Shown here piece by piece: positions 1 through 38,305 of a stretch of DNA of 38,305 nucleotides. The number at the start of each line of letters is the position of its first letter. Positions within the stretch are counted from its first letter, which is position 1. The position numbers and the translations under genes are program-made. A model generated the notes under the pieces. That model searched no databases, had not been told where the DNA came from, and saw only the letters and a program-made list of their open reading frames with translations. Origin of the DNA: a virus (Duplodnaviria; Caudoviricetes); IMG/VR virus record IMGVR_UViG_3300026288_000092, positions 1 through 38,305 of that record. One strand, 5' to 3'.

Positions 1-1224
1 TTATGTTTTCTGCCACGGCCCTCCTAAGTTGCCCAGTGAAAACCCACTAAACTGTTGATTTGTAACTCGATATTGAGATGGTCCCGATATCGAGAATGAT
101 TGGCGAAAAAGGGGGTTTGTGGCAGGTTTGGTGTCACAAGGTGCCTCAGTAGGGTCCCCAGCAGCGGGTTGAGCGGGAACCGGCAGAGGTGTCGGCAGGG
201 GGGCTGAAACCACCCTTGGGGCCTTCCTGGTCAACAGCACTTCAATCCCTTTGACGTGTTCCGCAGCAAGGTGGATGTACTTCTGCGAGACCTGAAGGCT
301 TGAGTGCCCCATGAACGCCATGATCTGCGGTGCGGTGGCCCCAGCGAAGGCCAGCCGGGTGGCTGTGGTATGACGCAGGGTGTGCACGATGAAGAACGGG
401 TCTTGCTCTCGATGTAGGGCCTCCCGGAGCTGGGACCATTGCGACCTCAGGATTGAGTCTGTGAGGCTCTGAAACACGCGGGGGCTACCGACCCCCTTGG
501 CAGCTTCAAAGACGGCAACCACGGACTCCGTAGCGGGCACAGCGCGGGCCTTACCGCTCTTGGTTTCCCCAGCATGCAGGATGACCAGACCGCCAGCTAA
601 GTCGGCAGGGACCAGCCGCAGCATCTCCGTGCGGCGGAACCCAGTGTCGATGCCAACCGTGATGAAGTTCGCCAGGGCATTCAGACCCAGCCGCTCGCAT
701 GTGTCCAGCATCAGCTTCTCGGTCTCCTCCGTGTACCAGCCGATGCGACATTCCGATTCTTTCCTCCTGAGGATGTCCGGTAGGTCCTTCACCCACCCTT
801 TGCGGCGGGCGTTGCGCAGGGACACGCTCAGGGCGGACAGCTTGCGGTTGATCGTGGACCCGGTGATTCCGCGCTCAATCAGCTCCGCAACGGCGTCGTC
901 CACGTCACTCGTCATGAGGCTCACCAGCGGGCGGTCCCATCCGAGGATGGCGGCGATGTCGCGCACATTCAGCTCCGTAGTGCGTCGGCTCTTGGTGTCC
1001 AGCCAGTGGTCCCGAATAGCGGCCTCGACAGCGTGCCCCACAGTCTTTGCTGGGTCACCCTGGGCGCGGGCCGCTACACGTCGCAGCTTTTCATCGCGCA
1101 ACTCGGCCAGCAGGGCCAGTTCAAGGGCCTCGGCTTCCGCTCTGGTGGAGGTCGTCTCGCGCTTTCGCGCAGCCCCTGACCCCACGGACACCTGAAAGGC
1201 GCCTCCTCGTTCATAGATAGGCAT
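1..1224 (-). CDS. int: Tyrosine recombinase / phage integrase
   Basis: Catalytic motifs DTGFRRTE (R), GETKSG (K), HTLRHT (HxxR), MGHSS (H), SQKYIH (Y) all present. Pro-rich C-terminal tail. Confidence 0.95.
   Translation of the reverse strand: MPIYERGGAFQVSVGSGAARKRETTSTRAEAEALELALLAELRDEKLRRVAARAQGDPAKTVGHAVEAAIRDHWLDTKSRRTTELNVRDIAAILGWDRPLVSLMTSDVDDAVAELIERGITGSTINRKLSALSVSLRNARRKGWVKDLPDILRRKESECRIGWYTEETEKLMLDTCERLGLNALANFITVGIDTGFRRTEMLRLVPADLAGGLVILHAGETKSGKARAVPATESVVAVFEAAKGVGSPRVFQSLTDSILRSQWSQLREALHREQDPFFIVHTLRHTTATRLAFAGATAPQIMAFMGHSSLQVSQKYIHLAAEHVKGIEVLLTRKAPRVVSAPLPTPLPVPAQPAAGDPTEAPCDTKPATNPLFRQSFSISGPSQYRVTNQQFSGFSLGNLGGPWQKT
48..60 (-). promoter_or_regulatory. IHF consensus site in int 3' end (probable att arm)
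   Basis: Minus strand AATCAACAGTTTA matches WATCAANNNNTTR exactly. Confidence 0.55.
66..95. promoter_or_regulatory. Putative repressor operator pair
   Basis: TGAGATGGTCCCGATATCGAGA (74-95), with a degenerate unit CTCGATATTGAG starting 17 bp before the core. Same motif at 3956, 4582, 21525 and 38231. Confidence 0.7.
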
Positions 1225-1228
1225 TCAA

Positions 1229-1615
1229 TTACTCCTTAGGACGTGTCACAGTGATCCCAGCAGGACCGGCCATCCGCATCAGCACCGCGCGTAGGAGGCG
1301 GTAGCCGTCTGCGGTGAGCTGGACCACTTTCCGGCGCCTGTTTAGGGCGTCATAGTCAGATGTCACCAAATCCATACCGATCTTGCGGGTCGCCTGGAGC
1401 GGGCCAAGTGCATCGACGTGCCGCGAAGCGGACGAGAGGGTGGTTCCAGTCAGCTTTCCAAGCTCGGTCACGGTGCTGCCTGGATTCAACGCTGCTGCAA
1501 CGAGAGTCTTGAGCTGCGCTACCGTCATATTCGGATGTACGCCCCCCAGTTCCTCCAACACCGCATACAGGCGGTTCGTTGCAATACGCTCCTCGATTGT
1601 TAGTTTTTCGTTCAC
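1229..1615 (-). CDS. MarR-like winged-helix regulator, probable lysogeny repressor
   Basis: MTVAQLKTL...TVTELGKLTGTTLSSASRHVDAL HTH, then LVTSDYDALNRRRKVVQLTADG wing. GTG start with AAGGA SD, directly upstream of int. Confidence 0.85.
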   Translation of the reverse strand: MNEKLTIEERIATNRLYAVLEELGGVHPNMTVAQLKTLVAAALNPGSTVTELGKLTGTTLSSASRHVDALGPLQATRKIGMDLVTSDYDALNRRRKVVQLTADGYRLLRAVLMRMAGPAGITVTRPKE

Positions 1616-2001
1616 AGCGTTTCCTTGGTCGGCTGTAGATTAGATGGAGAGGCCCTAAGAAGACCTCAAATCCACCGCAGTACGTTCGGTCGAACGCTGC
1701 ATACGGCGGCGCTAAGGGGGCGGTCGTGAGAATTACTTCGTGCCCAGCTACTTTGACGTGCATCAAAACGACGATCCTATGTTATGGATAAAGAAGGATC
1801 ATAACTACCGTTACCGGCAGTAACTCGATTCAATGATTGTCCCGGCAGCGGGAGAGGATGTTACACCGGACCTGTTGCGCAAGCCCCTGTTTCCATGGTT
1901 AAGTCGCGTTAAAACAACGGGAATTACCCGGTAATTTGAGTGTTTTTTGGTTACTTTTATGCCGGGGAAAGCCCAGCAGAATCGGCCACCAGAGTAAGCA
2001 A

Positions 2002-2064
2002 CGGCATCGAGAAGGTGTGACATATCGAGAGCGTTTCTGTATCGGGAAAGAATTGATGTCGGAA
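2002..2064. promoter_or_regulatory. Array of four degenerate operator units upstream of repressor
   Basis: ATCGAGA (2006), ATCGAGA (2024), ATCGGGA (2041), GTCGGAA (2058): 17-18 bp period, as in the operator pairs. Confidence 0.5.
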
Positions 2065-2067
2065 GTG

Positions 2068-2376
2068 TTAGGGCGCACGGAAAAGAGTGGCTTCGGGGCA
2101 CTCAGCCTTGACGGCCTCAAACGCCTCCGCGCGGCTCCGCGCTCGCACATAGACCTCAGTGGATAGGTCCGGCGTGAACGCGCACCACAGGGGGGCACCT
2201 CCACCGCCCCAGTAGGTCCCATCGGGGGCGTAGTCGCCATCCACAAACCGGACACGCTGGAGATACAGCGGGGACGGCTCGCCCAGGACGTTCCTACGGC
2301 CCAGCGGTGCCCCGTACCGACTACCGACCGGGCGCAAGAGCAGGATGTGGTTTATGTCGATGCGTGCCATGGTCAT
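2068..2376 (-). CDS. Early phage hypothetical protein
   Basis: YGAPLGR...LYLQRV...GDYAPDGTYWG motif typical of a phage hypothetical family. ATGA overlap with the upstream gene. Confidence 0.7.
   Translation of the reverse strand: MTMARIDINHILLLRPVGSRYGAPLGRRNVLGEPSPLYLQRVRFVDGDYAPDGTYWGGGGAPLWCAFTPDLSTEVYVRARSRAEAFEAVKAECPEATLFRAP
2079..2103 (-). terminator. Possible intrinsic terminator at end of early operon
   Basis: GAGTG-ccccgaagc-CACTC followed by TTTTCC; short stem. Confidence 0.4.
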
Positions 2377-2597
2377 GCCCCCAGCTCGGCCAGCTCAAGG
2401 GGGAGCGAAAAGCCCACGGGGCCAGAGCGGCGCAGGCTCACGCGGAACCCCTCGGACGCCGGGAAGCGCCCAATGGTGGCCTCGACAGCGCTGCGGGTGA
2501 CCCCCTCGGGGAACACCACGCGGGCGTATTTGGCGAACTTCTGGGCGGGACAAGCGCGGCGGGTGATGTTCAAGATCGGGCGGATTTCGTTTGTCAT
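2373..2597 (-). CDS. Early hypothetical protein (74 aa, MTNEIRP...)
   Basis: Fills the gap between neighbouring early genes. Start re-called from the 152-aa ORF to avoid overlap. Confidence 0.55.
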   Translation of the reverse strand: MTNEIRPILNITRRACPAQKFAKYARVVFPEGVTRSAVEATIGRFPASEGFRVSLRRSGPVGFSLPLELAELGA

Positions 2598-2631
2598 ATT
2601 GATTCTCTGAAAGGAGTTTTCTGCGGCCACG

Positions 2632-3243
2632 TCAAGCGGCCCAAACGGCAGGCATGTACGGGCCTGCATGGGTCCCCTCTGCGGGCCAGCTATGGACCGG
2701 GGAGATAACACCGACGAACTCGGGGGCGGCTTCATCGCTGTCCAGCGCCGGGAAAGTGACGATTCCGGGGTGATTGGGGCCGTTGTAGTGGATGCACGGA
2801 ATAGCCGGGTTGCCCAGCCGCTGATTTGCAACCGCAGCAGCCAACCGGCCGAACAAGTTCAAGCTGTGGGGCGCGTATTGCGCCGGCTCCCCGGTGATCT
2901 GTGCCGGAAAGACATCCCGCCAAGGTAAGCCGCCTTGGGCATTGGCCGGCTCGGACCAACGCACCCGGACCAGCTTTTGGGTGAACCTTGGCTGAACCTC
3001 TCGCCGCGCCGGCTTCGGCGGTTTTGGGTCGATCATGTAGGGTGTTGGCCCCAGCTCGCGCCCGCCCTCCGCGTAGTGCAGGACGGCCAGGGCGAACCCG
3101 TTGGATGCGGCCAGGGTGAACCCGCTACGGTAGACCCGCGAGCGCTCCACCCATACCCCCCGATAAGAGCTGCGGATGTCCTTGGGGACGGTGAACCGCG
3201 CCAAGGCTTTTAAATGTGCTGCGGGCACGTCGATGCTAGGCAT
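2632..3243 (-). CDS. Beta sliding clamp-like phage protein (degenerate, 203 aa)
   Basis: AGGAG SD. KDIRSSYRGVWVE, LAASNGFALA, LPWRDVFP and FVGVISPV resemble DnaN motifs (R-x-x-L-x-G-V, ATDGHRLA, FPDYRRVIP, vimPmr). Confidence 0.55.
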   Translation of the reverse strand: MPSIDVPAAHLKALARFTVPKDIRSSYRGVWVERSRVYRSGFTLAASNGFALAVLHYAEGGRELGPTPYMIDPKPPKPARREVQPRFTQKLVRVRWSEPANAQGGLPWRDVFPAQITGEPAQYAPHSLNLFGRLAAAVANQRLGNPAIPCIHYNGPNHPGIVTFPALDSDEAAPEFVGVISPVHSWPAEGTHAGPYMPAVWAA

Positions 3244-3345
3244 GGATTTTTCTCCTTTGTACGGGCCAAAGCGGCCCCCAAAGGGCACCCCCCACGGCCA
3301 CTCTAAGCGGCCCCTCCGGGTGCCCTTCAGGCGCAGTTCTGGCGC

Positions 3346-3771: not shown

Positions 3772-3773
3772 GG

Positions 3774-3866: not shown

Positions 3867-3955
3867 CTTCAAATCTCCGTTGGTGCTTGATCGGTAGGGG
3901 CGAATCCCCCCAGAGAACCCGGCTCGGACCCTCTGGGGGGACCTCTCGGCAAACC

Positions 3956-3977
3956 CGAGATAGTCCCGATATCGAGA
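3956..3977. promoter_or_regulatory. Putative repressor operator
   Basis: CGAGATAGTCCCGATATCGAGA, intergenic after the first early gene. Confidence 0.7.
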
Positions 3978-3980
3978 GGG

Positions 3981-4538
3981 TTAGGACGAACGAAGGCCCT
4001 CTAGGAAATGAGCCTCAAGTCCCTGGAGGTCTCCTCGGTGGGTGTCCGCGTGAGCCTGGACGACAGCAAACACCCAGCTTTTTTGATCCTGGACGAATCC
4101 GCCCTCGGTGCGCTCGTGGAACCAAACCTGCCCGAGAGTGTCAGCAACGAACAGGGCGTATTCGATTGAGTCTGTACCGAAAGTGCGAGCAAGTTCGGTG
4201 AGCTGCATACGGACAGCAGCCAGTTCCCCGGCGACTGTGAAGTCACCCGTAGAGGCGATATGGGCCATGTCATGCCAGTAGCGGAAAGCGTAATTGGCCT
4301 CCGCACTGCCATAGATGGTGGCGTCCGATCCGCCTGCCCAAACCGGGAAGGGAACCCGCTCACACTGCGAACGGCGTACAGCAGCCAGGACAGCTTCGTA
4401 GGTCTCCGGGGCATCACCAGCCGGCTCGTAGCTGAATCCAACATCACGGGCCAAACGGGCAGCTCTCTGGATCATCCAGCGGCCCAGCTCGGCGCCTGCT
4501 TTGTTCATCGTGTATTCGTTGACGGGGGTCTTAATCAA
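3981..4538 (-). CDS. First early gene, hypothetical with FRYWHDMAH motif
   Basis: TTG start with AGGAG SD, just downstream of the sigma70 promoter. Confidence 0.75.
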   Translation of the reverse strand: MIKTPVNEYTMNKAGAELGRWMIQRAARLARDVGFSYEPAGDAPETYEAVLAAVRRSQCERVPFPVWAGGSDATIYGSAEANYAFRYWHDMAHIASTGDFTVAGELAAVRMQLTELARTFGTDSIEYALFVADTLGQVWFHERTEGGFVQDQKSWVFAVVQAHADTHRGDLQGLEAHFLEGLRSS

Positions 4539-4573
4539 GGTTTTCTCCTGGGTGGTTACGGTCTGTGAATCAA

Positions 4574-4603
4574 ACCGATGTCGAGAGTATCCCGATATCG
4601 AGA
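4574..4603. promoter_or_regulatory. Tandem operator overlapping early promoter
   Basis: CCGATGTCGAGAGTAT / CCGATATCGAGAGTAT direct repeat with 17-bp period, covering the spacer, -10 and +1. Confidence 0.75.
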
Positions 4604-4615
4604 GTATTAAGTCAA
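4586..4615 (-). promoter_or_regulatory. Host sigma70 early promoter, T7 A1-like
   Basis: TTGACT-N18-GATACT (same hexamers as T7 A1), with AT-rich UP-like DNA at 4616-4660. Confidence 0.75.
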
Positions 4616-4667
4616 TCGGAATTAACTAATTGAATTTTCAATTCGATAGTTTCAAGCTAAACCTCTT

Positions 4668-4838
4668 GGGTGGCCCGGTGTAGTGCCTGGAGGTGGCCTA
4701 GAGGTGCAGTGCCTGGAGGTGGCCTGGAGGTGGCCTGGGGGTGCCTGGAGGTGGCCTGGAGGTGGCCTGGAGGTGGCTCGGTGCAGTGCCTGGGGTGGCT
4801 CGGTGCAGTGCCTGGAGGTGGCCTAGAGGTGGCATGGG
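4668..4838. repeat. Degenerate tandem repeat, ~11-bp unit GCCTGGAGGTG
   Basis: More than ten imperfect units with interspersed GGTGCAGT. Position is analogous to the T7 left-end short repeats. Confidence 0.9.
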
Positions 4839-4859
4839 GTTATAAAGAATTCTGTCTTT

Positions 4860-5595
4860 ATAACTAAAAGGAATAACAACTACAGATAGCCAAAGATGCA
4901 GTGATATAGCTATTGGCTATTAACAACTGGTTCATCATATCAAATAGCTATAAAGAACCACACCCAGTGACTCTCAAGGCCCCGAATCCGCCCCCCTGTG
5001 GATGCCCCATCCGCTGCGGTCCCCTTAAGAATCAATAGGTTAGCTCGCTTGTGGCAGGTGTCACGGTGTCACAGGCGCCCGGAGGGGGTGCATGGAGGTT
5101 CTCCACCGGGGAGGTAGGGGGGGGGCTTCGAGGGGGCCATGGGGGGAAATTCGCGCCGCCCCTGTATCGAGGGTGTCCTCGGACTTTTGCGGCTAATTAT
5201 TTGGGGGCTCCCCTCAGTCGCTTCGCTCTTGGGTAGACCATGATGGCTGTACCCCGCTAAGCACTCTATTGGTCCCTGGAGGCATCCCGCCAGGTCCCCG
5301 CTGGGTTCGCCTTTAGGTTCCCTTTAGGTAATCAATAGGGAGGTAGTTGAGGTAGGACTCTCTGGGAGCGAGCTGTTTTCAACTCCCCCCCTACCCCCCG
5401 TAGATTGAACCTCTAGAGGGCCTTTACGGGGTCCCAGAGATAGACAAGAGGTAGGAGCAGAGAGAACATAAACCCACATTCCACAGAGTCCATCTGGACT
5501 CCTGGTTGGCTTCACTAGTCCCCAAGCGGCAAAGTTGCCAAAGGCCGCCGTCCTACCCATGAGTAGGGACGCTCCCCAGACAAGGCCGATTCACA
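4860..5595. other. Presumed genome-end / terminal repeat junction region
   Basis: Non-coding stretch between the post-terminase phage promoter and the repeat array / early promoter. Exact ends are not determinable. Confidence 0.6.
5030..5073 (+). promoter_or_regulatory. IHF consensus plus arm-like motif near genome ends
   Basis: AATCAATAGGTTA (5030-5042), then TTGTGGCAGGTGTCACGGTGTCACA, similar to TTGTGGCAGGTTTGGTGTCACA at 117-138. Confidence 0.5.
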
Positions 5596-5625
5596 CCGGG
5601 TTGTCCAATAAGGGTCGTTTTTATT
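5596..5625 (-). promoter_or_regulatory. Phage RNAP promoter (phiOR-like)
   Basis: AATAAAAACGACCCTTATTGGACAACCCGG, identical at 25052 and 35659. Confidence 0.88.
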
Positions 5626-12300: not shown

Positions 12301-14105
12301 TGAACCATCTCGTGGATAAATATGTCCTCGGTCAGGCCGTGTGCTGAGCCCCAGCCGCGCCCACGCAGGGCTAACTGCAAGTCAACCCCGTCCGCCGTGT
12401 AGGTGCTCCGCATCAAGCCCAGAGCGCCCCCCAGTTTGGTGGACATATCGGGGGCCAGCCGGTTCTTCGGGTTGGACGATGGCCGTAGGTTGCCCGCCCT
12501 CTTGGGGTCGAGAACGGAGAACTTCAGGCGCCGCATGTCGATAGCCTCCAGGGACTTCTTCAGGACCCGCACGAGGTCATCGTTCTGTGAGAACCGGATG
12601 ACGTACTTCGCCATGGCCCCCGGATCGTCCAGGGCGGGCAACTCCAAAACCTTGCCCGTGCCGGTGGCCTCCGTGTAGCGCGGCGTGTCCCACTCAGCCT
12701 CCCAAGGGTCTTGCCTCGGGGCAGCATCAGGGGCCTTGTCAGGCGCCGCATCTGGGCCGGTGGGGGCTTCTTTGGCTACCCGTGGGGGTTGGGGAGGGTC
12801 ACCCCCCGCAAGCCCTTCAGGCCCCTTCAGGGAGCCCGGCTGGGGTGTCCCATCGGGGGCGTGCTCAGGGACGGGTTCCGGGGTCTTTTCCAGCGGCTTC
12901 TCAGGGGTGATGCGAGGCGGGGCCGGCTCCAGGCCACCTTCTATCGCCTCTCGCTCCATGGCGTCCCTGGCCTGTTTGCCTAGGTGACCGTCCAGGTCTC
13001 TGAGTTCCTTCGCCAGCGCTGGGGCACGCACTTTGGCTAACGAGCCTGCTACGCCCCCCACAGCAGCGCCGAACAGGGCGGACATCCACAGGTCGTCTGG
13101 GGTAGCTGTGGGGCGGTATTGATCGCCCACGGCGTCGATGGCAACGTTCGTAGCTGCGCCCCACGCTCCCGAACGAACGAGGTTGGCGAGGCGGCTGGTC
13201 TTGGTGAGCAGGCCCGCACCGCCCATACCCGGCAAGGCGCCAATCAAAGTCGGGATGTCGGGTAGGCCACCCACGATCCCGCCAGTCAGCGCCAGGGGCA
13301 GGCCCATCTCACCCAGCTTCTGCTCCTGGGCCATCGTCTCGGCCAGCCGTGCTGAGCGCATCTCCAGACCCTTGACCGTGCCGGCTTCGCTGAGGTAACC
13401 CCAGTGCCGCTCGGGGAACTGATTCAGGGTGTCCTTGGCGAGCGCTGAGTTCCAATCAAGGGGCTCCCCGACATCTTCAACGGCCCGGTCTTTGAACCAG
13501 TTCCAAGCTGTGTTCTGCGTCTCGAAACCCAGACGAGCGGCGCCAAGCACATTGCCAGCGAAGCCAGAGACCCCACCGAACTCATCTTCGCGCTGGCGTT
13601 GTTGGAAGGCGAGCTGGGTATTGGAGGGGCCTTGGGTGGAGGGGACGGTTTCAAGCTCCGTGAACTGGCGCCCGAGAGCCGGCTTTGGGGCTACTTCGGC
13701 GGGAGCTGCCGGGGCACCTGCGCGACCTCCGTTGAACTTGGACAGGTAGTCCGAGGTTTCCGCCCACGGCTTGCCACCACGTAGCGCCGCGACAGCCTTG
13801 TGGCCTCCGTTGTAGTAGGCCAGGGCCTCGTCCATATTCCCGTCGTGGCGTCCCAGCAGGTCCTTCATGAACCGGCCAGCAGCGTCGGCGGATTGGGTGA
13901 GGTCGTCAGGGTTGGTCAGCCCGTACTGTTTGGCCGTTGCCGGCATAAATTGGAACCAGCCTTGGGCACCTGTGTGGCTCCGCTGTCCGGGGCGGTAGCT
14001 GGACTCAATGCCTGCGATCTTGAACAAGGTGTCCTTGGGCAGGCCGTATTTTTTCTCTGAATCGAGAGTGATTCGACGGATTTGGTCCCTCGTGTAATTC
14101 GACAC
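9396..14105 (-). CDS. gp16: Internal virion protein gp16-like, with N-terminal lytic transglycosylase and internal HExxH domain
   Basis: IESS, GWFQFMPATA, ALAYYNGG and ETSDY (SLT motifs); HEMVH...EF internal domain; C-terminal FQFMNF; synteny. Confidence 0.88.
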   Translation of the reverse strand: MSNYTRDQIRRITLDSEKKYGLPKDTLFKIAGIESSYRPGQRSHTGAQGWFQFMPATAKQYGLTNPDDLTQSADAAGRFMKDLLGRHDGNMDEALAYYNGGHKAVAALRGGKPWAETSDYLSKFNGGRAGAPAAPAEVAPKPALGRQFTELETVPSTQGPSNTQLAFQQRQREDEFGGVSGFAGNVLGAARLGFETQNTAWNWFKDRAVEDVGEPLDWNSALAKDTLNQFPERHWGYLSEAGTVKGLEMRSARLAETMAQEQKLGEMGLPLALTGGIVGGLPDIPTLIGALPGMGGAGLLTKTSRLANLVRSGAWGAATNVAIDAVGDQYRPTATPDDLWMSALFGAAVGGVAGSLAKVRAPALAKELRDLDGHLGKQARDAMEREAIEGGLEPAPPRITPEKPLEKTPEPVPEHAPDGTPQPGSLKGPEGLAGGDPPQPPRVAKEAPTGPDAAPDKAPDAAPRQDPWEAEWDTPRYTEATGTGKVLELPALDDPGAMAKYVIRFSQNDDLVRVLKKSLEAIDMRRLKFSVLDPKRAGNLRPSSNPKNRLAPDMSTKLGGALGLMRSTYTADGVDLQLALRGRGWGSAHGLTEDIFIHEMVHGATVHRFERTMKGWGTSRMSSDTKQAYRELNDLYGFVKKHSRTRSDIPKNAGNYLSNAKEFISYGLTDRRFQDWLRSVKVPGSKTTLWTRFTSGLSKLLGIAKKDTHALARLIDLTDAMMSKKGFDTRKNPRPTLQPANKFVSDEEATAAANADLSPVFGWGLGLEHRLGSEKIPPKIRNLAGKLFGTTVGYKDHAVVRANVWDDSVARSGGWQADMRKVGYTKFHEWFKSQKDFPWHQKGVAFEHFGEQVNNYIRGIPGQYGPEVIAAGRHAQDILETVVDEINNPAMRRGGSKRGLTTQEVTDDLGNTMWVGELQKNRNYLPRKHDIMKWNAAIQKWGVSAVEDWWTNAFAKTHGHMQPEFHRRFAKWYMDAVQDAHLNRTESHLEDMMTGADEKALHDVLVRNGGFSEDDAWDLIRGMFLGPEKDKGRTAASLRHRSSIAEDHSETLIDSAGNRGTLTLNDFIHTNAFDVLDSYFQRTASSISLADHLDVYKQADIGRLIDTATKQELGTTVPQAVVEQARKDLQFSFDRIQGLPQEEFAGWRKGLEMWRSFNVIRLMGGAMFNQVQEMSQLVGSLGWKATLQAVPELRRLMRDARTGKAPNEWLDHLENTIGGVGSEYVARMQLSPRHDWVENLGDTRTNRALDTLDTGLKKFASGVLDYSGMTAVMVQQKRLHAVALTNHLVNLAVEGGEARVFTPNRLAMMGLDSSEFAAMKAAIRKYSAPGGRGEYGKKVNFDFKRFAKDEPELNAKMMHLIHRESRRVVQENDLASMVTVMGTSVGQTMFQFMNFVMQAWNKSMLYAMHHRDFATASTMLWGGLLSSLTYTARTQLSAMGRSEEDRERFLDKRLATKQLVANSIGRVAQLSLLPQLYDIGPGMLTGAVFSGMRTTSDVSSLASNPTIQAVQSVLSLGKVVRNGFSDDLQTTSQDVRSWGRLLPLNNVVPISSLINTVAADYPYDEKEAE

Positions 14106-20568: not shown

Positions 20569-21510
20569 TTAGACCGAAGCGAGTTCCACCGAAGTCGCGG
20601 GGTTCAGCACACCGTGACCCATGGCGTACTTCGCCACCATCAAAGTGCCCTGCCAGCGAACGCTGTACTCGTGCTCCATTTGGATGTCCATGAGCTTCAG
20701 ATTGCCCACGGTGTCCTCGGTGAACACGACGCCTACCGTCTTGGTGAAGTCACCGCCGTACTTGTTACCGTAGCCGGCCCCCAGGGAGCCGTCCGGCACG
20801 ACGGTGCTGGGAACGTGGGTGCTCTTGAGCAGTTCAATCCCTGCCACTCGAAGGACCTTGCCTTCGGCGAACACGCCAGCACCACCCCAGTCCTTGTTCA
20901 GGACCTTCGTGTTCTGGGCGAGGCGGTTGTAGATGGCGGGGCGCAGGAAGGCGAAGCGGCCATCCTCCGGCACGTTCTTGTCGTCCAGCACGGTGGCGGC
21001 GTTGAAGAACGATTCCACCAGGGCGTCCATGTCGGTGTCCAGGCTGGGCACAGAGAGGACGGTCCCACCGAAGTCGGTGGAGATGCGAGCGGCGCCGCGA
21101 GCGGCCTGCACGGCAGTCTGGAGCAAGTGGCGGTCCAGAGTGTTCGCCAGGGCGTTGCCCAGCTTGCGGGCATACGGGGCACGAACTTCGTAATGGTTCA
21201 TGGCCTCCTGGATGTTGGCGATGAACACGTCAGCGATCAACGGCATGTCCACCGTCAGGGTCACCTCGTTGTGCACGATGGGGGTGCCCTCGATTTCGGT
21301 GCCGGGGGCGTGGTACTTGGCAGTGGTGTCACCAATCACCGGGAACTGGGCGCTGCGGCCGTTGCTGATGGTCCGCTGCGTGACTCGGGGCAGCACTTTG
21401 TTCTGCGCATCGAACTGAGTCAGGATTTCACCAGCGAACTGAGTGAGGAACAGCTCGAAGTCATCGCCGGAGCCCTCGCGCTGACCGGGATTGGAGGGGA
21501 ACGTTGCCAT
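20569..21510 (-). CDS. gp10: Major capsid protein (gp10)
   Basis: LFLTQFAGE, RTISNGRSAQFP and KYAMGHGVLNP motifs. Confidence 0.96.
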   Translation of the reverse strand: MATFPSNPGQREGSGDDFELFLTQFAGEILTQFDAQNKVLPRVTQRTISNGRSAQFPVIGDTTAKYHAPGTEIEGTPIVHNEVTLTVDMPLIADVFIANIQEAMNHYEVRAPYARKLGNALANTLDRHLLQTAVQAARGAARISTDFGGTVLSVPSLDTDMDALVESFFNAATVLDDKNVPEDGRFAFLRPAIYNRLAQNTKVLNKDWGGAGVFAEGKVLRVAGIELLKSTHVPSTVVPDGSLGAGYGNKYGGDFTKTVGVVFTEDTVGNLKLMDIQMEHEYSVRWQGTLMVAKYAMGHGVLNPATSVELASV

Positions 21511-21524: not shown

Positions 21525-21546
21525 TATTGATATCGGGAATGTCTCG
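21525..21546. promoter_or_regulatory. Operator-like site just upstream of capsid RBS
   Basis: Minus strand CGAGACATTCCCGATATCAATA, in opposite orientation to the other copies. Confidence 0.6.
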
Positions 21547-21620
21547 TTTGCGAGAGCAAATAGACGAAGCAAAGCCCCCCCAGGCGCTGGGCCTAAGGGA
21601 GCTTCAGGAGGGGGTGGGGT

Positions 21621-22064
21621 TTAGGTGCCGGTGGGTTTGACGGAGACGCCGCGTACCTTTTCGTAGGTGCGGTACGCCCCGAGTCCCAGCAGGCCCATGA
21701 GGATGGTTGTGAGTTCGTCCAGTTGCAGCTTCGGGGGTGCACCCCAGCCAAGCCCGTTGGTTGCGGCCCAGCCAAGTAGCGGGATCAGGAAGAATTGACA
21801 AGCCAGAGCAAGGGCGCAAATCCAGCCAACTGCCGGGCGCCAGCCAGACTTGAATAGGGAGTCGGACTTAGCCTCCTCCGCGTTGATGAGTTGCTGACCT
21901 GCATCGCCAGCCACCAGGGCGTCCAGCACTTTGAATTCGCCGGCCTGTTGCATCTTCAGGACATCCAGCTCGGCCGAGGCGCGGGCTGCGGGGTCCGGGA
22001 AAACGCGGTCGAAGACTTTTTCGAGCACAGGACCAAAGGGGACCAACGCTGAAAGAAAGCTCAT
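21621..22064 (-). CDS. 3TM holin, gene-transfer-agent type (DUF3154-like)
   Basis: FPDP N-terminus, INAEEAKS..F.SGWRPAVGW, LMGLLGLGAYRTYEK. Confidence 0.85.
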   Translation of the reverse strand: MSFLSALVPFGPVLEKVFDRVFPDPAARASAELDVLKMQQAGEFKVLDALVAGDAGQQLINAEEAKSDSLFKSGWRPAVGWICALALACQFFLIPLLGWAATNGLGWGAPPKLQLDELTTILMGLLGLGAYRTYEKVRGVSVKPTGT

Positions 22065-25045: not shown

Positions 25046-25051
25046 ACTTCG

Positions 25052-25081
25052 CCGGGTTGTCCAATAAGGGTCGTTTTTATT
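25052..25081 (-). promoter_or_regulatory. Phage RNAP promoter (late)
   Basis: Exact 30-bp copy at the head of the structural module. Confidence 0.88.
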
Positions 25082-27375: not shown

Positions 27376-27585
27376 CTAGAGCAGACCCCGCGCGACTAGC
27401 ACGGTTTGGCCTGTGGGTGTGATTCGCCATTGACGCCCGTAGGTGTCCTTGGCTTGGCGTGTGGTGATGTAGCCTTGTGAGGCCAACGCTGCTACTTCCT
27501 GTGCTCGCTCGCGGGAGAAGTCCGACTGGATACTTCGCGGCGCCAGGAACACAAGGTGCAGCGCTTCCAGCGTTTCTCTGTCCAT
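27376..27585 (-). CDS. gp5.7: gp5.7-like host RNAP inhibitor
   Basis: PRSIQSDFSR...VAALASQGYIT...WRITPTG aligns by eye with T7 gp5.7; located after the DNA polymerase. Confidence 0.85.
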   Translation of the reverse strand: MDRETLEALHLVFLAPRSIQSDFSRERAQEVAALASQGYITTRQAKDTYGRQWRITPTGQTVLVARGLL

Positions 27586-27587: not shown

Positions 27588-29444
27588 TTAGTGGGTCTCG
27601 GCCCAGGTGTGGCCGATCTTGGATTCGCCATCCGTTGGACAGCGGAAGTTGAATTGCTCACCCGCTTTGCGGACCATCAGCGGCGCCAGTTCGGCGACTT
27701 CGCGGGCTATGGCTTCCGTCCGGCAGGCGATTTGCACCTCGTCGTGGACAAAGGCCACCTGTGCGTAATCCCCGTCAAAACCGTGGATGAAGCCCCTTTC
27801 CTCCATAACTGTGTGGAAATTGATGAGCCATTGCTTGCAGATGACCGCGCCGGCTGACTGCAACAGCGTGTTCAGTGCCGCGTGTTCGGAGCGAATGGGG
27901 ACGATGCGCCGGTCGAGGCCGATGATGTAACCCCTCTTGGAAGCCGCCTTCACCTTGTCGATCAGCATGGACAGAGCCGGCAGTCCAGCGAGGAACTTCG
28001 TGCGCAGGCGCCGCCCGGCCGCTCGGTCTTTCCCAATGATCTGCCCCAGCTTGCCATCCCCGGCCCCGTAGAGGAACGCATAGATGAACGTCTTTGCGTT
28101 CGCTCGGGTGGGCAGGCCGGCAGCTCGCTGGTTGACGGAGTGAATGTCCGTCCCCTTGGATGAGTCGCCTGTCAGCAGGATTCGGGTGTACGCCCCGTCG
28201 TCATAGGGGTGCATGAAGTGGGCGAGGCAGCGCAACTCCAGCCCGGAGGCATCAGCGCCGACGAGCCACCAACCGGGCGGGACAACCCAGCAGGCCCGGC
28301 AGTCCTCGCCATAAGGAGAATCGCTAGAGGGCGTTTGGGAAACGTTGGGGTAGGAGTGTGTGCACCGACCAGTAACCGCGCCGTTTGGCGTGATTGAGCC
28401 ATGGATTTTTCCTTCAGGTGAGACCAGCTTGAGCCATGCGTTGTCCCCGTCTCCCACCTGTCCGATGCGCTTTTGCACCAGGAGGTATTCAACGAGGTCC
28501 GCGACTGGCGGGTAGGGGAGATGTTTAAGAATTTCCTCATCGACCTGGGGCTTTCCACTGGGCGTGAACTCGGTGGGGTCCCAGCCGAACAGGGTCTTAA
28601 GGCGGTTGGCGATGTGGTCACGAGAACCGGGGTTGAACACCAGGGTCTTTTTCTTGACCACGGGAACGCCTTTGACGTAGCCCAGCTTCTTGTTGTTGAC
28701 CTTGGGTGTGAACGGACGAAGCTCCACGGTCCACGGCGGGAACCACCCGGCCAGCTTGTTCTCCAGGGCAGCGCGGCGCTCAACCAGCTTCAGGTACAGG
28801 GAGCGGGCTGCGCCGGAATCGAAGTGAAAGCCGTTCCGCTCTTGCTGGGCCAGGAGCCAAGAGACGCGGTGCTCCAGCTCAAGTGACTGAAGGGCGGGCA
28901 GCTTGGCTTCGATCCGTTCAAGGAGGGCCAGAGTGACCCGAACGTCCTGGGCGCAGTAGTCCAACATCTCCGGGGTGTACTTGTCCCATGCGTCCTCCTG
29001 TTCTCCATAGTCACCCTTCAGGATTCCCAGCCGGTAGCCCCAGGCTTTCAGTGAGTGAGACCCCCAAAGGCTCCCAGGAAGCCGCCTGCTCTTGACCAGA
29101 TTGGTGTCACTCTTTTTGATGTCAGGCCAAACCAGACGGGCGCACGTCAGGGTGTCGATGAGGGCTTCCTGGGGGATGTGGAGTTTGGGAAGGAGCTTGC
29201 GCAGAACGGGGTGGTCGTACTTGATGCCGTTGTGGGCGGCAACTCTGAGGCCGAGGTCCACGTAACGCTGAAGGTCCTCCTGGTAGCGCTTGGTTTCTGT
29301 TGGTGGGTAGCGGTGCTCCTGGCCTGTGCGGCGGTCGAAGATGACAGCGCAATGAAGCGTGTCCACTGTGGACAGGAGCCCGTTTGTCTCCGTGTCCGTA
29401 ACCACATCCGCCAACCAGGGTGTTGGGGCGGTGTCAGCCATCAT
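27588..29444 (-). CDS. gp5: Family A DNA polymerase (gp5)
   Basis: DTETNG exonuclease motif, HSLKAWG, DASGLELRCL, AKTFIYAFLYG, VHDEVQ. Confidence 0.97.
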   Translation of the reverse strand: MMADTAPTPWLADVVTDTETNGLLSTVDTLHCAVIFDRRTGQEHRYPPTETKRYQEDLQRYVDLGLRVAAHNGIKYDHPVLRKLLPKLHIPQEALIDTLTCARLVWPDIKKSDTNLVKSRRLPGSLWGSHSLKAWGYRLGILKGDYGEQEDAWDKYTPEMLDYCAQDVRVTLALLERIEAKLPALQSLELEHRVSWLLAQQERNGFHFDSGAARSLYLKLVERRAALENKLAGWFPPWTVELRPFTPKVNNKKLGYVKGVPVVKKKTLVFNPGSRDHIANRLKTLFGWDPTEFTPSGKPQVDEEILKHLPYPPVADLVEYLLVQKRIGQVGDGDNAWLKLVSPEGKIHGSITPNGAVTGRCTHSYPNVSQTPSSDSPYGEDCRACWVVPPGWWLVGADASGLELRCLAHFMHPYDDGAYTRILLTGDSSKGTDIHSVNQRAAGLPTRANAKTFIYAFLYGAGDGKLGQIIGKDRAAGRRLRTKFLAGLPALSMLIDKVKAASKRGYIIGLDRRIVPIRSEHAALNTLLQSAGAVICKQWLINFHTVMEERGFIHGFDGDYAQVAFVHDEVQIACRTEAIAREVAELAPLMVRKAGEQFNFRCPTDGESKIGHTWAETH

Positions 29445-29878
29445 TGGGTGAGCGTCCAGGTGATGAAGCCGTCCTCAGGGGGCGAATCGTCCACGACGAA
29501 GCCGCAGCCGACGAGGTTCGACATCGAGACGTGGTTGCGGTCCGATGTGTAGGTGTTGATCCGGGTTAGGCCCAGCTCCCAAGCCTTCTTGATCCGGGCG
29601 CTGATGAGGCGCCGTTGAAAGCCCAATCCCCGGTAACCCTCCACGACACCGCAGCGAATCAGATCGGCAGTCAGCTCGTCCAACGGTTTAGTCACCGTCA
29701 GGGCGGCGAAGGCCACAGCCCGGCGACCATCCAGCACCAGCCACCAAAGGGTGTCGTGATCGGTGCCTTCAGGGTCGATGCAGAGGTCCGAGGGGAACAC
29801 CTCCAGTTGCAGACGCTTAAGCCGCTCCACATCCAGTTCGCTGTCAATCCGGGCGGCACGGAGTGTGTATCGCGCCAT
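29441..29878 (-). CDS. GNAT family N-acetyltransferase
   Basis: GVVEGYRGLGFQRRLI (acetyl-CoA motif A) and N..S..NL..CGF. Start re-called at MARYT with GGAG SD. Confidence 0.85.
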   Translation of the reverse strand: MARYTLRAARIDSELDVERLKRLQLEVFPSDLCIDPEGTDHDTLWWLVLDGRRAVAFAALTVTKPLDELTADLIRCGVVEGYRGLGFQRRLISARIKKAWELGLTRINTYTSDRNHVSMSNLVGCGFVVDDSPPEDGFITWTLTQ

Positions 29879-29880
29879 GC

Positions 29881-30159
29881 TCAGAACTCCCGGTATTGGT
29901 CGCGCAGGGACTTCAAGAAGTAGCGGACGTAGCGCTGGCCGGTGGTCTTGTGCCGGCGCGTGTCGCTGACGATGACGTAGAAGGCACGCAACTCGTGGAT
30001 TCGTTTGGTCAGGGACTGCACGCCCAGGTCCAGGATGGCATCGCGCTGGGTGATGCTTCCCGTGGTGTTGAGGTAGCTCAGGAGCGCTTTGCCTTGGGGC
30101 GTCAGGTCCTTCCACACCATCGGTGGAATTTGCACGTTGGCAGGAATACGCTTGGTCAT
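29881..30159 (-). CDS. Winged HTH DNA-binding protein
   Basis: LLSYL...GSITQRDA..LGVQSLTKRIHELR...YVRYFL. Confidence 0.75.
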   Translation of the reverse strand: MTKRIPANVQIPPMVWKDLTPQGKALLSYLNTTGSITQRDAILDLGVQSLTKRIHELRAFYVIVSDTRRHKTTGQRYVRYFLKSLRDQYREF

Positions 30160-30179
30160 TGAGGAGGTCCTTGTTGATC

Positions 30180-30224
30180 GGAAATGGAAAACCCCGCCGG
30201 CCCTAGGTGGGCGCAAGCGGGGTC
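30180..30224 (-). terminator. Terminator-like hairpin
   Basis: ACCCCGC...GCGGGGT followed by TTTCCATTTCC. Confidence 0.55.
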
Positions 30225-30271
30225 TGTGAGGTGAGGAGGGGGGGAGAGCCTTCAGCGGCTCCCTGGGCAGA

Positions 30272-30922
30272 TCAGTAGCCGCCCTTGATGATTTCCCCTA
30301 GGCGGCCGCCCAGGTCCATATTCAGTGCGTTCATCAGGATGGCGCTCGGGTGATAGTCGTCGGCCATGTCCTGGGCCGTGAACGTCCAATCGCCCAGTTC
30401 GACCAGGGGAACATTGCGCAGCGTGGCAACGCGGCGGATGCGGTTGCGAACGTCATCCAGGCGACTGACCGATGTCTGAGTCATGAGGCCACGCACGGGC
30501 AGTACCGGGGGAGTACAGAGGAGCGGCTTGCGGCCTACGCCCTGGCTGATGCTCACCATCGCGTTGATGCAATACTCAAAGTCCTCCAAGGAGAACACAT
30601 ATACACCGTAGGCCATCGCAACGGCCTCGTTGATGCCGTAGCGGAACATCTGGTACTCGGCAATGTCGTATGCGGCGGAGAAGTCGAAGGGTCCCCCCAC
30701 GGTCAGGATGTCGCGCCACGGGCCGGTGTCGGTCATCGCGTGCTGTGCGGTACAGCCACCCACCGAACGGTCATCCAGGACCAGAAACGAACCCCGCCCG
30801 CCAGCACCGATGCTGCTCAGGGGTGAGTACGCTATGCCGGCGTCTTTGACAAAGGCGTTGGACGTGTAGCTGTCACCGAAGATGGAAACGGTTTTCGGGT
30901 TGTATTGAATTGCAGCGGCCAC
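30272..30922 (-). CDS. SGNH/GDSL hydrolase
   Basis: Blocks FGDSYT, VGGCT, YGINE and DDYHP; AAGGAGG SD. Confidence 0.85.
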   Translation of the reverse strand: MAAAIQYNPKTVSIFGDSYTSNAFVKDAGIAYSPLSSIGAGGRGSFLVLDDRSVGGCTAQHAMTDTGPWRDILTVGGPFDFSAAYDIAEYQMFRYGINEAVAMAYGVYVFSLEDFEYCINAMVSISQGVGRKPLLCTPPVLPVRGLMTQTSVSRLDDVRNRIRRVATLRNVPLVELGDWTFTAQDMADDYHPSAILMNALNMDLGGRLGEIIKGGY

Positions 30923-32931: not shown

Positions 32932-32934
32932 GGC

Positions 32935-32958: not shown

Positions 32959-33043
32959 GTGTTGGTTGGTGGCTGCGCCGCAGCATCAGAGGTCAGGACG
33001 TGCGGCGAGTCGGTTGGTGGGGTCGATGTTCTATAGTTGGACG

Positions 33044-33454: not shown

Positions 33455-33460
33455 TCCCCC

Positions 33461-35045: not shown

Positions 35046-35059
35046 AGGGCTCTTTCAGG

Positions 35060-35086
35060 GGAAAAGAAAAGCACCTCGTAGGTGCC
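35060..35086 (-). terminator. Intrinsic terminator-like hairpin before SSB
   Basis: GCACCT-ACG-AGGTGC followed by TTTTCTTTTCC. Confidence 0.65.
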
Positions 35087-35108
35087 TTCAGGTTTGTGTG
35101 CTGGGTCG

Positions 35109-35408
35109 TTACACCCAGGTGATGGGATCAGGGGTGATGAACACCGGGATGCCGTACAGCGTGTGGCGGGCAACTAGGGTTTCCTGGTATCCGTGGCTAC
35201 CGATGACCGTGCGGTGGACACGGTGTTTGGCCGTGGGCTTTCCGATGGCCCCGCCTTGCTCGCGCATCTCTAAGCCCCTCATTACGGACGCCCACTCGGG
35301 GGGGCTGAACGTGAACGCTGCGGTGAAGCAGGCACCAGGGAGGGTGCTCTCGGCGGCTTGTCGGCAGGCTTCCGGGATATCTTTGGGATCGAACGACAGA
35401 AGTTGCAT
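35109..35408 (-). CDS. Hypothetical protein
   Basis: AAGGAGG SD before MQLLSF. Confidence 0.6.
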   Translation of the reverse strand: MQLLSFDPKDIPEACRQAAESTLPGACFTAAFTFSPPEWASVMRGLEMREQGGAIGKPTAKHRVHRTVIGSHGYQETLVARHTLYGIPVFITPDPITWV

Positions 35409-35421
35409 CGGCGGTCCTCCT

Positions 35422-35616
35422 TCAGGCGCCGAAAGTGTTCTCGATGGCATCCGCGTCGATGCCGGCTTCCATCAGTTCGGTCCGCAGGTCCACAGGGATG
35501 GGACGCCCCTCGCTCGCCAGCGTGATGGCGCGGCGGGTCTGGATGGCGAACGCGGACGGGTGGTCAGCGCCCATCGGGGGTGTATCAATGGAAGGGACGG
35601 AGTAGTCGAATGCCAT
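35422..35616 (-). CDS. Hypothetical protein, first gene after phage promoter
   Basis: AAGGA SD before MAFDYS; GRPIPVDL..LMEAGID motif. Confidence 0.6.
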   Translation of the reverse strand: MAFDYSVPSIDTPPMGADHPSAFAIQTRRAITLASEGRPIPVDLRTELMEAGIDADAIENTFGA

Positions 35617-35658
35617 GGTGATCCTTTGGTTGGGTGAGGAGGACACCTGACGAAGACG

Positions 35659-35688
35659 CCGGGTTGTCCAATAAGGGTCGTTTTTATT
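35659..35688 (-). promoter_or_regulatory. Phage RNAP promoter (middle)
   Basis: Exact 30-bp copy just downstream of the RNAP gene. Confidence 0.88.
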
Positions 35689-35728
35689 GAAAATCCCGGA
35701 GTAGGGATGGTCACGATTGCGAGAGTGT

Positions 35729-38305
35729 TCAGGCAAAGCAATACCTGCTCGCCTTGACGGCCTCTAGGTCCAGAGAGCCAACGGGCGGTATCGGCGGGAA
35801 CTTCGCCGCCACCTCCGGGGCGACCAACTCAGCCATTGAGTCCTGGAAATTGCCAAGCACGTTTATCCCCCCGTAGATTTCCACGAACGCCTCGCGGACC
35901 GCCTTGAAATACACGTCCATGTCGCAGGCGTGGGTCCCGAACGAGTCATGGACCACGGCGAACGAGGTAACCCCGGACTCCTCGCCCCGGACCACAGTGA
36001 GGGTCAGGTGAGCGGCATCGCAGGAGTGGACGAAGTTCGGCGCAATGCCGTCCTCCATCTTCCGCACGTTCAGCCCGCCGTCCTTGCTCGGTTCCAGCAG
36101 CGGCAGGGTGAGACCACCGTGCAGGCTGGTCGTTACTCGGCGTGTACGCATGTCCGGGTACGCCTGCATCACTGGGAAGCCCACGGCGTTCTCCCAGCGG
36201 GCCGGGATGTTCTCCTTGGCGACCCGGTTAGCCACCGACTGGAGCCACTTCATCGCTGAGGTTGCCGCCACCAGGGTCTCCGTGACCGAAGCCCAGATTT
36301 TCTTGGCGAGGTAGCGGGCAGTCGCGTTCTTGTCCCCGGTGAACGGGTAGAGGTCCTTGTCGATGCTCCCATCAGGGCCTGTGGCGTGGGCCAGGGCCGG
36401 GTCCAGGATGTCGTCAAGGAGCTGGTCGGTGAACCCGTACTCTTTCGACCCGTAGGCGAGCGTCATCACCGGGCGCTTGGTCACCTTGCGTGTCACCCCG
36501 AACTCCAGCCACTGAGCGGCGAGGGTCTTGGTGCCCTGAATCACCACAGCCGCGCCATCCTTGGTGTGGCTTAGACTGTCCTCGGTGCCATGTTCCAGGT
36601 CTCGGCGCAGCTCGGCACTCACGGCGTCCGCCACGATCCGGTACACGTCCTGGGGCCGCTCCTCAGGGGTGAGGTTCACAGCGCGGGCGCCGCTGGGGTC
36701 TCGCAGCATGGCGCTGAAGTGTTGGATTCCCGAACACGAGCCGTCCATTGCCACCGACAGGTGCGACACGAAGCCGTCCGGGTCCGCCCGGTAATCGTTC
36801 CACTCGAAACAGAACGCCAGGAACTGCCAGGGGGAGTCGATAGCGATTTCGCCAATGGCTCGGCACCAGCCCCGGTTGTTCATCGGATCAGCGGCGCATG
36901 CCCGGATGGCCTCATCGTTATCCCAGACCCATTGCACACGCTCCTCGAAGGTCACCTTGTCGTTGCCGGCGAGGTTGGCCCCTTGGTAGGCCAGCCAGAA
37001 GGCCCCGCGCTCCCCCAAAGGCTTCCCCTCGGCGAACCTGAGGAGGCCCTTGGCGGGGTCAGCGCCTTGCGGGGATAGTCCAGAGGGGACAGAGTAGAGG
37101 CGCCCACGGTAGTCGTACTGGTAGGGGAAGTAGATTGCCGGGTACTTGGCGAACCTGTTGGCGGTGCCCAGCATCAAGTTGGTGGCGATGCGCTCGCCGC
37201 TCAGGCTCTTGTTTGCGGCCCAGGCGACGGCAGCGCGGCGGCGCCAGCTCCTGCGGGACTCCTCGTTGCTTGCGATGTCAGCCGGCTTTGGGGGGATAGG
37301 AACGCCACCACGGTGGGGCAGACCCGCCTCGGCAATGTCCTCATCCCACATGCTATTCATCACTTCCAGGACGCGGTTGTTCACTTGCCACCCCGTGTTC
37401 TGGACGTTGTTGATGGCCTCGTAGATCACAGGCATCTCGTAGTTGGGCAGCTCGGCGAGGAACCCCTGGTTGCGGGTTTTCACGAGCGGGTAGGGCCGCT
37501 TGGCGTAGGTTAAATAGCCCCCGAACTCCTCCGGCGACCAAGGCATAGGCGGGACCACCATCGGCTCGTGCTGTGGGCGCAGGGCCTCGGTTGCCGCGTT
37601 GCGTCGGTCGATCCAATCCAGGGCGGCTTGTGTCGGCAGCAACTCGTTGTACGTCTTACCTTTCCGGCCCCGTGCGGCTTGAACGTGGAACAGCCCCGTG
37701 GTCTCGATAACGAAGTCGATCAGGGCTAGTCCGATGTGGACCCGCTCATGCGCCGGCAGCTCGTCAACGACGCCCTTGAGGTGGCGGTGAACAAAAGTGC
37801 GGCGGAACTGGTGCGACACCCGCTCCGTGGCGTTTTTCACGAGCTTGCCCGCCTCCTTGGCGTCCTTTTCTCTCAGCTCCTCCAGGCGCATCTCGTCGTC
37901 CACCATTCGGCCAACCACAGAGGCCACCGAAGTGAGGTGGCGAGTTGATCGGATGCCAGCCACGCATCCCAGGAGAGCGAGGTATGCCGCCTTGCGGGGG
38001 TTGATCTTCCGCAAGTGCTTTGCGGAGGCGTGTCGCTTGCCGGGCTTGCCCGTATCCAAGGAGCGGAGGAATTCTTCGATGCGATCCGCGACCACAGCAT
38101 TGAACCGCTTCATCAAGGCGGTGCCGAAGCTCGTGCTGTTCTCCTGCTCACGCTGGCGAGCTGACTCCAGGTTGCGGTAATACGAATCTATCCCGCGTTC
38201 CATGATTTCCTGTTCGATCCGTAGCTGTTCCGAGACCATCTCGGGATCGAGAGAATCAAAGTAAATAGAAAAGGCGTCACCGCCCTTAAGGGATAAAACC
38301 GACAC
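35729..38305 (-). CDS. gp1: T7-type single-subunit RNA polymerase
   Basis: DYRGRLY, DGSCSGIQH, KRPVMTLAYG, PNFVHS, HDSFGT and C-terminal FA. Start lies at the window edge and is uncertain. Confidence 0.97.
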   Translation of the reverse strand: MSVLSLKGGDAFSIYFDSLDPEMVSEQLRIEQEIMERGIDSYYRNLESARQREQENSTSFGTALMKRFNAVVADRIEEFLRSLDTGKPGKRHASAKHLRKINPRKAAYLALLGCVAGIRSTRHLTSVASVVGRMVDDEMRLEELREKDAKEAGKLVKNATERVSHQFRRTFVHRHLKGVVDELPAHERVHIGLALIDFVIETTGLFHVQAARGRKGKTYNELLPTQAALDWIDRRNAATEALRPQHEPMVVPPMPWSPEEFGGYLTYAKRPYPLVKTRNQGFLAELPNYEMPVIYEAINNVQNTGWQVNNRVLEVMNSMWDEDIAEAGLPHRGGVPIPPKPADIASNEESRRSWRRRAAVAWAANKSLSGERIATNLMLGTANRFAKYPAIYFPYQYDYRGRLYSVPSGLSPQGADPAKGLLRFAEGKPLGERGAFWLAYQGANLAGNDKVTFEERVQWVWDNDEAIRACAADPMNNRGWCRAIGEIAIDSPWQFLAFCFEWNDYRADPDGFVSHLSVAMDGSCSGIQHFSAMLRDPSGARAVNLTPEERPQDVYRIVADAVSAELRRDLEHGTEDSLSHTKDGAAVVIQGTKTLAAQWLEFGVTRKVTKRPVMTLAYGSKEYGFTDQLLDDILDPALAHATGPDGSIDKDLYPFTGDKNATARYLAKKIWASVTETLVAATSAMKWLQSVANRVAKENIPARWENAVGFPVMQAYPDMRTRRVTTSLHGGLTLPLLEPSKDGGLNVRKMEDGIAPNFVHSCDAAHLTLTVVRGEESGVTSFAVVHDSFGTHACDMDVYFKAVREAFVEIYGGINVLGNFQDSMAELVAPEVAAKFPPIPPVGSLDLEAVKASRYCFA
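38231..38252. promoter_or_regulatory. Degenerate operator in RNAP 5' end
   Basis: CGAGACCATCTCGGGATCGAGA: 11/14 core match with the exact CGAGA-N3 flank. Confidence 0.5.

Follow-up and report, generated by a model that had tools for sequence, protein, structure and literature searches.

A likely operator network for a proposed lysogeny switch in an integrated T7-like prophage

The closest described relatives of the system considered here are the temperate T7-like phages Pasto and LUZ100, in which a marR-int operon lies upstream of the polymerase gene, a tRNA-Leu lies near the attachment (att) site, a phage promoter drives the polymerase gene, and MarR has been proposed to repress the polymerase via specific sites. 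The LUZ100 paper describes a polymerase positive feedback loop and cites Boeckman et al. 2022 for the hypothesis that MarR sites flank the promoter upstream of the polymerase gene; its main text contains neither "operator" nor "palindrom" (PMC10134795). In the available account of P-SSP7, pMarR (gp0.7) dimerizes and binds DNA, for which it requires R67; it binds at host rne with an affinity of 320 nM and activates the host rne promoter from downstream of the start site, contacting the RNA polymerase alpha subunit (PMC9692554). Repressor sites scattered through a whole genome are described for cluster A phages (L5 and TipsytheTRex), where a two-domain monomeric repressor recognizes more than 20 asymmetric 13-mers and halts elongation by host polymerase (PMC9283540). 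Here, we analyze a stretch of 38,305 nucleotides, IMG/VR record IMGVR_UViG_3300026288_000092 (the window), whose MarR-integrase module resembles that of Pasto and LUZ100 and whose dispersed palindromes likely form, judging from the sequence, the operator network of a proposed lysogeny switch.

The window corresponds to C217:44177-82481 of a bacterial assembly (4.5 Mb, 67% GC) and is an intact-looking T7-like prophage integrated in a tRNA-Leu gene. It has both a T7-type single-subunit RNA polymerase (35729-38305, minus strand; PF00940, phrog_414 E value of 8e-258) and a T7-like gene order, and a gene for a MarR-family winged-helix regulator of the gp0.7/pMarR type (128 amino acids; 1229-1615, minus strand; phrog_9665 E value of 4.7e-16, with a weak MarR_2 match) lies directly upstream of a tyrosine integrase gene (1-1224, minus strand; PF00589 E value of 1.7e-15, phrog_1). 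In GenBank, the closest relative is Limnohabitans phage YIMV22061 (52% identity in the polymerase and about 40-46% in MarR), whose paper, in the part available, treats marR as a resistance-related auxiliary gene; from the nearest phage relatives, the host is probably a Burkholderiales bacterium. Whereas the published LUZ100/Pasto model, as cited, has sites flanking one promoter (PMC10134795), those in the window are genome-wide, fall in promoter spacers and intragenic slots, form 17-bp pairs, and belong to a set of lineage-specific sequences. In outline, a scheme in which MarR represses near the polymerase promoter was already known; slots spread over the genome and sequences particular to each lineage build on it. 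An earlier reading of this DNA, made from the sequence alone (the sequence-only reading), knew of no described operator map for such a phage. We likewise found no genome-wide map for temperate T7-like phages in the published literature, where Boeckman 2022 or the LUZ100 supplements may list sites, but the LUZ100 paper does report the hypothesis of sites flanking the polymerase promoter.

The other two systems compare as follows. P-SSP7 pMarR shares with the window protein its family, gene position, conserved S-R pair, and C-terminal Gly, but it has been studied as a host rne activator, and the account of it reports no phage operator or consensus (PMC9692554). The sequence-only reading likened the window to the L5 stoperators, which are likewise numerous, are spread over the genome in promoters and intergenic positions, and favor one orientation (PMC9283540). 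This analogy holds for dispersal and orientation bias and fails for site symmetry and protein family: the window has near-palindromes of 14 to 16 bp at about 8 to 10 locations, a single-domain MarR predicted to be a dimer, and late genes transcribed by the phage polymerase. With its palindromic sites and a repressor predicted to be a dimer, the window does not carry an L5 stoperator system, although it may function in a similar way.

That repeated palindrome pairs occupy control points in the window is confirmed. Exact copies of the core TCCCGATATCGAGA lie at 82-95, 3964-3977, and 4590-4603, preceded each time by YGAGA-N3, and variants lie at 21525-21538 and 38239-38252, so that direct matching bore out the copies from which the sequence-only reading had started. 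A search for TCYCGATATCGRGA with up to two mismatches returned six matches, above the chance level of 0.24 on average (largest, 2) in 100 dinucleotide shuffles. We then scanned with a position weight matrix trained on the 10 units named in that reading. The 17-bp repeat period claimed there held, with six tandem pairs at this period versus 0.06 expected and zero to two at any of the other periods between 14 and 23; four of the six were training units, which makes them circular, and the pairs 35694/35711 and 2034/2051 were outside the training set. The training pair 3947/3964 fell below threshold (second unit, 2.6 bits). The 17-bp neighbor signal amounted to 3.7 standard deviations (SD) in the window, a partly circular figure, versus 1.0 to 1.5 SD in relatives. 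Sites of at least 16 bits numbered 6 in the 38.8 kb of the prophage versus 5 in the 4.5 Mb of the host outside it. The better half-site, counted with a half-site picked after the data were seen, was upstream, downstream, or tied in 13, 2, and 4 cases in the window, 8, 0, and 3 in LUZ100, 8, 1, and 6 in RHEph01, and 8, 1, and 2 in Pasto.

A predicted sigma-70-type early promoter at 4586-4615 (minus strand; TTGACT-18-GATACT, 9/12 matches in a consensus scan), with hexamers that we take to be those of T7 A1, is covered by a tandem pair at 4573-4603 (12.6 and 21.0 bits) that spans its spacer, −10 element, and start region. A further pair at 35694-35724 (7.8 and 11.8 bits) directly follows the polymerase stop codon and abuts a promoter-like repeat at 35657-35688; this slot is the most conserved across phages. 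The repeat (family D7), by its position a putative phage-polymerase promoter, has four copies, at 5594-5625 (minus strand, after terminase), 25050-25081, and 35657-35688 and, beyond the window, ahead of the polymerase gene; none of the four lies near the capsid leader. Inside the polymerase gene, a pair at 38222-38252 (8.5 and 17.4 bits) lies 54 to 84 nt within the coding sequence, not at the 5' end proper as first read, and has the same offset in YIMV22061. Similarly, the pair first assigned to the capsid ribosome-binding site (21525-21555; 16.2 and 13.6 bits) ends just upstream of it, ahead of the major capsid gene (20569-21510, minus strand; PF21703 E value of 9.5e-63), and YIMV22061 has a matching site 50 bp ahead of its capsid gene. 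A single site at 14054-14067 (15.5 bits) falls within the 5' end of the gp16-like gene, where a codon alignment places the motif on the same codons in YIMV22061.

The remaining sites lie between the early genes and the att site. The pair at 65-95 (65-78 and 82-95; 17.8 and 21.0 bits) sits in the 3' tail of int near attR. Upstream of marR is a weak three-unit array with units at 1806, 1823, and 1840 (1806-1853; period, 17; 8.3, 4.4, and 9.0 bits), a candidate autoregulatory site of marR. Like the post-polymerase pair and the gp16 site, it goes beyond the sites listed in the sequence-only reading. The leader of about 200 bp from this array to the marR start (1616-1810) is noncoding, and no consensus promoter was found there. 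The four-unit array claimed at 2002-2064, which separates the last early gene from the marR leader, is real, with units at 1999, 2017, 2034, and 2051 (1999-2064), but weak (5.9, −0.2, 10.9, and 4.7 bits), spaced 18, 17, and 17 bp, with its upstream half-sites kept.

A strong site at 3964-3977 (21.0 bits) with a weak partner (2.6 bits; together, 3947-3977) follows the first early gene, and the RNA around it also folds into a long hairpin (3925-4000; fold z score, −2.7). Region 50-120 folds as well (z score, −3.4), and several slots recall what we take to be the positions of T7 RNase III sites, so the palindromes might be read as RNA elements, either RNase III hairpins or pause sites. We regard this as highly improbable: four of the seven regions fold only weakly or moderately (z scores of +1.1 to −2.0), any tandem palindrome folds, and the sequence itself, beyond its pairing, is kept within each phage. 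Promoter-spacer sites, moreover, lie upstream of the start site, which is mapped for LUZ100 P1, and because one site fills the promoter spacer, it must act as DNA. A double role for 3947-3977, as DNA site and RNA hairpin, is possible.

We compared 20 MarR-positive T7-like genomes, the window included, with 5 genomes without an intact marR; G500, G503, and G686 (a MarR-like gene and no T7 polymerase in the stretch examined), G260 (a 3.4-kb contig), G037, and G191 were left out of the counts. A clear network was present in 11 of the 20 (the window, YIMV22061, LUZ100, G403 to G406, RHEph01, Pasto, S39-C11, and G805) and in none of the 5 MarR-lacking genomes, three of which carry an integrase. The window matrix found 5 sites of at least 12 bits in YIMV22061, versus 0.8 in shuffles (maximum, 3 in 40), and the motif occupies slots equivalent to those of the window: within and behind the polymerase gene at matching offsets, ahead of the capsid gene, inside gp16, close to att, and between early genes. 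Motif conservation extends to YIMV22061, and other lineages use different palindromes. LUZ100 has its own at 11 sites, two of which sit between the −35 and −10 elements of the transcriptome-mapped promoters P1 and P2. Its matrix found 2 to 13 sites in four relatives, 11 versus 0.4 expected in Rhizobium phage RHEph01, and, weakly, 4 versus 0.4 in HTVC019P; in HTVC200P, the count of 3 versus 0.9 equaled the shuffle maximum. A third motif occurs at 11 sites in Pasto, among them one in a promoter spacer, one in the ribosome-binding region of marR, and two upstream of the polymerase gene, and a fourth is found in MedDCM-S39-C11. G805, examined only after the post-polymerase slot had been defined, has a fifth palindrome in that slot, 4 to 19 nt past the polymerase stop, and 15 further copies (shuffle maximum, 7) in matching slots, including a 17-bp pair before marR. 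The intragenic DNA-polymerase site of LUZ100, two of its relatives, and RHEph01 is spelled with the rare CTA codon (2 to 5% of Leu). A slot test with a single word beat all 40 shuffles in 8 of the 20 positives and 0 of the 5 negatives; slot symmetry by itself was weak, with at least four of seven pairs in 12 of 19 MarR-positive genomes and 1 of 5 MarR-lacking ones.

The genomes without a network include phages at least as near to the window phage as LUZ100 is. BB8, DU_RP_I, and BOESR1 show identities to it (polymerase, 47 to 49%; integrase, 37 to 39%; gp5.7, 46 to 60%) that equal or exceed those of LUZ100, and all three lack both an intact marR and a network. BB8 and DU_RP_I have an integrase without marR; in the Ralstonia phage BOESR1, marR is reduced to its last 33 residues ahead of the integrase gene (L012:7378-7476). 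By sequence, the three could possibly be stages of lysogeny loss. A possible relic pair follows the BOESR1 polymerase gene, with no network behind it.

Several results count against a MarR-bound network that silences the prophage. Among the MarR-positive genomes, 5 of the 20 (four pelagiphages and CRP-361) gave a weak or single-slot signal, and no network was found in 4 more (P-SSP7, S-CBP3, S-SRP02, and G133). The Pasto matrix also scored 4 hits versus 0.8 in two lytic controls. When held against random genomic 16-mers, the single-word slot test beat 95% of them in only 3 of the 20 positives, the window not among these, and blind palindrome discovery was abandoned, as codon repeats and promoters scored as high in MarR-lacking phages. 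The window phage has no strong site beside the promoter that precedes the polymerase gene; pairs are found about 215 nt downstream of this promoter and, once the genome is excised as a circle, on its upstream side across attP. RHEph01 shares the LUZ100 motif at only 32% MarR identity. Motif and recognition helix also follow overall descent in a sample of few clades, which is not independent: five positives form one LUZ100 clade and five negatives form two clades, and we claim no formal test. Finally, the sole tested homolog, P-SSP7 pMarR, is reported as an activator, which keeps a non-repressor role open.

As to the binder, the AlphaFold2 model of the MarR-like protein (mean predicted local distance difference test score, 92.8) is a single-domain winged helix-turn-helix with a helix at residues 60 to 70, the putative recognition helix. 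The top Foldseek matches among those listed are MarR-type proteins (E value of about 4e-5), 42 PDB sequences match the profile, and S64/R65 correspond to S66/R67 of P-SSP7 pMarR. Across phages, motif type roughly tracks the recognition helix, with L..SRH accompanying TCTCG, Q..SR accompanying TATCCAC, and K accompanying GTCAC. The sites are thus likely bound by the phage's own MarR-family protein (1229-1615). The sequence-only reading had proposed dispersed MarR operators in a temperate T7-like genome; the comparison supports this core idea well, and binding is predicted from sequence.

Other binders can be considered. The window encodes a gp5.7 homolog (27376-27585), T7 gp5.7 is described, in the part of the source available, as a repressor of host-polymerase promoters (PMC5569994), and the host genome contains one strong tandem match, all of which could point to gp5.7 or a host regulator. 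The motif is rare in the host, however, and does not follow host taxonomy: RHEph01 and HTVC019P, both picked up by the LUZ100 matrix, have unrelated hosts, and Pasto, which also has a rhizobial host, has another motif. Because the LUZ100 matrix crosses to unrelated hosts while rhizobial Pasto differs, a host factor is unlikely; gp5.7 is present in network-free phages and was not detected in network-bearing Pasto. We give these binders next to no credence.

Nor do we see more than the slimmest chance that the integrase is the binder or that the palindromes take part in recombination as arm-type or directionality sites. One pair does lie about 110 to 150 bp from the att core, and YIMV22061 also has sites near att, but most sites are 2 to 35 kb away, and the three integrase-positive, MarR-lacking phages have no network. 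A separate repeat, TG(A/C/G)CACA, is concentrated on the two arms of att, where YIMV22061 has 8 of its 22 copies and the window phage 3 of its 8, and is the better arm-site candidate. In the window phage, candidate integrase arm-type repeats of this kind lie at 117-140 and at C217 ~43930-43970.

If the MarR protein is the binder, it might still serve mainly as a lytic timing switch, shutting off early promoters or activating some promoters, and not as a lysogeny repressor. The downstream activation and alpha-subunit contact of P-SSP7 pMarR (PMC9692554) would fit such a role, as would the finding that LUZ100 retains sites yet gave no stable lysogens in the work described (PMC10134795). Against it, the window is an integrated, intact-looking prophage, and a site in a promoter spacer is in the classic repressing position. 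The deposited LUZ100 marR (L002:2321-2650) also lacks two codons found in all four close relatives; this gap, a defective repressor or a sequencing slip, may bear on the missing lysogens and so explain LUZ100 behavior. A timing switch seems very improbable to us.

Weighing these points, we consider it highly probable that the palindromes are operators of the MarR-like protein (1229-1615), predicted to hold the T7-like prophage silent. A MarR dimer would sit on each palindrome through helix 60-70, and the 17-bp spacing, strong in the window and modest in relatives, suggests cooperative tandem dimers. Occupation of the early-promoter pair (4573-4603) would block initiation by host polymerase, the weak arrays before marR would let the protein set its own level and tune marR-int, and the pair beside the post-polymerase phage promoter would hinder the phage polymerase. 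The sites in the int tail, the 5' end of the polymerase gene, the capsid leader, and gp16 would limit leaky transcription and read-through and thereby keep the polymerase positive feedback loop off. Because no phage-promoter copy lies near the capsid leader, the capsid pair would have to be a roadblock or act on a hidden promoter. T7-type polymerases generally get past a bound repressor without much difficulty, and elongation blocking may therefore matter mainly for host polymerase. Integration, by which the polymerase gene is separated from the early promoter, would provide backup silencing, and the lineage-specific palindrome would define immunity groups.

The att core of 11 bp, located between int and the polymerase gene, is duplicated 38,725 bp apart at C217 43803 and 82528, with the attR core ~50 bp beyond the window start. 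The uninterrupted site reads as tRNA-Leu(TAA). Beyond the window ends, the host tRNA-Leu(TAA) is split at this core by integration (C217:43803-43919 and 82528). The phage brings a complete tRNA-Leu(TAA) of its own, located beside attL, and this is the sole intact one found in the assembly. Profile searches of the window place the genes on the minus strand in T7 order: polymerase, single-stranded DNA-binding protein, primase, DNA polymerase, portal, capsid, tail, terminase, early genes, MarR-like gene, and integrase. A three-helix holin (21621-22064) lies between the scaffold and capsid genes, and a GNAT acetyltransferase and a GDSL-like hydrolase (29441-30922) lie between the primase and DNA polymerase genes. 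Upstream of the early promoter, a GCCTGGAGGTG array of 10- to 11-bp repeats (4665-4845) likely represents short repeats beside the genome terminus. In two RNA runs, coverage of the prophage was thin and even, in the form of contigs, and is uninformative on expression.

Searches for further relatives returned little. The sole match to the exact tandem pattern was an identical prophage copy, a metagenome scan with the MarR alignment gave one 99%-identical copy, a genome-collection scan with the same alignment gave no relative, and a homolog search at 90% clustering gave only the 128-amino-acid protein itself. Scans of viral and genome collections with the post-polymerase slot pattern yielded 33 matches, none with a polymerase gene, and we attribute these to chance. 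Phage-type MarR genes also occur on bacterial contigs with no T7 polymerase in the stretch examined (G500:C224:13221-13517, G686:C19:6361-6672, and G503:C23:151374-151709); the one in G503 adjoins an integrase gene.

Although T7-like phages are regarded as purely lytic and find use in therapy and biotechnology, many of them exist as prophages. We tentatively suggest, with more doubt than confidence, that the temperate ones share a single conserved genome-wide operator floor plan whose slots, some intragenic and spelled with rare codons, were rewritten together with the MarR helix to give many immunity groups; that the oriented internal sites block elongation, so that a stoperator logic would have arisen independently with a MarR dimer as its repressor; and that lytic T7-like lineages arose by loss of marR and then of the sites. 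How T7-like prophages keep silent is a matter of hypothesis, which the exact operator sequences and positions make directly testable by simple binding and reporter assays. The operator sequences also allow temperate modules to be told from decayed ones by sequence screening, and the lineage motifs suggest sets of orthogonal repressor-operator pairs.

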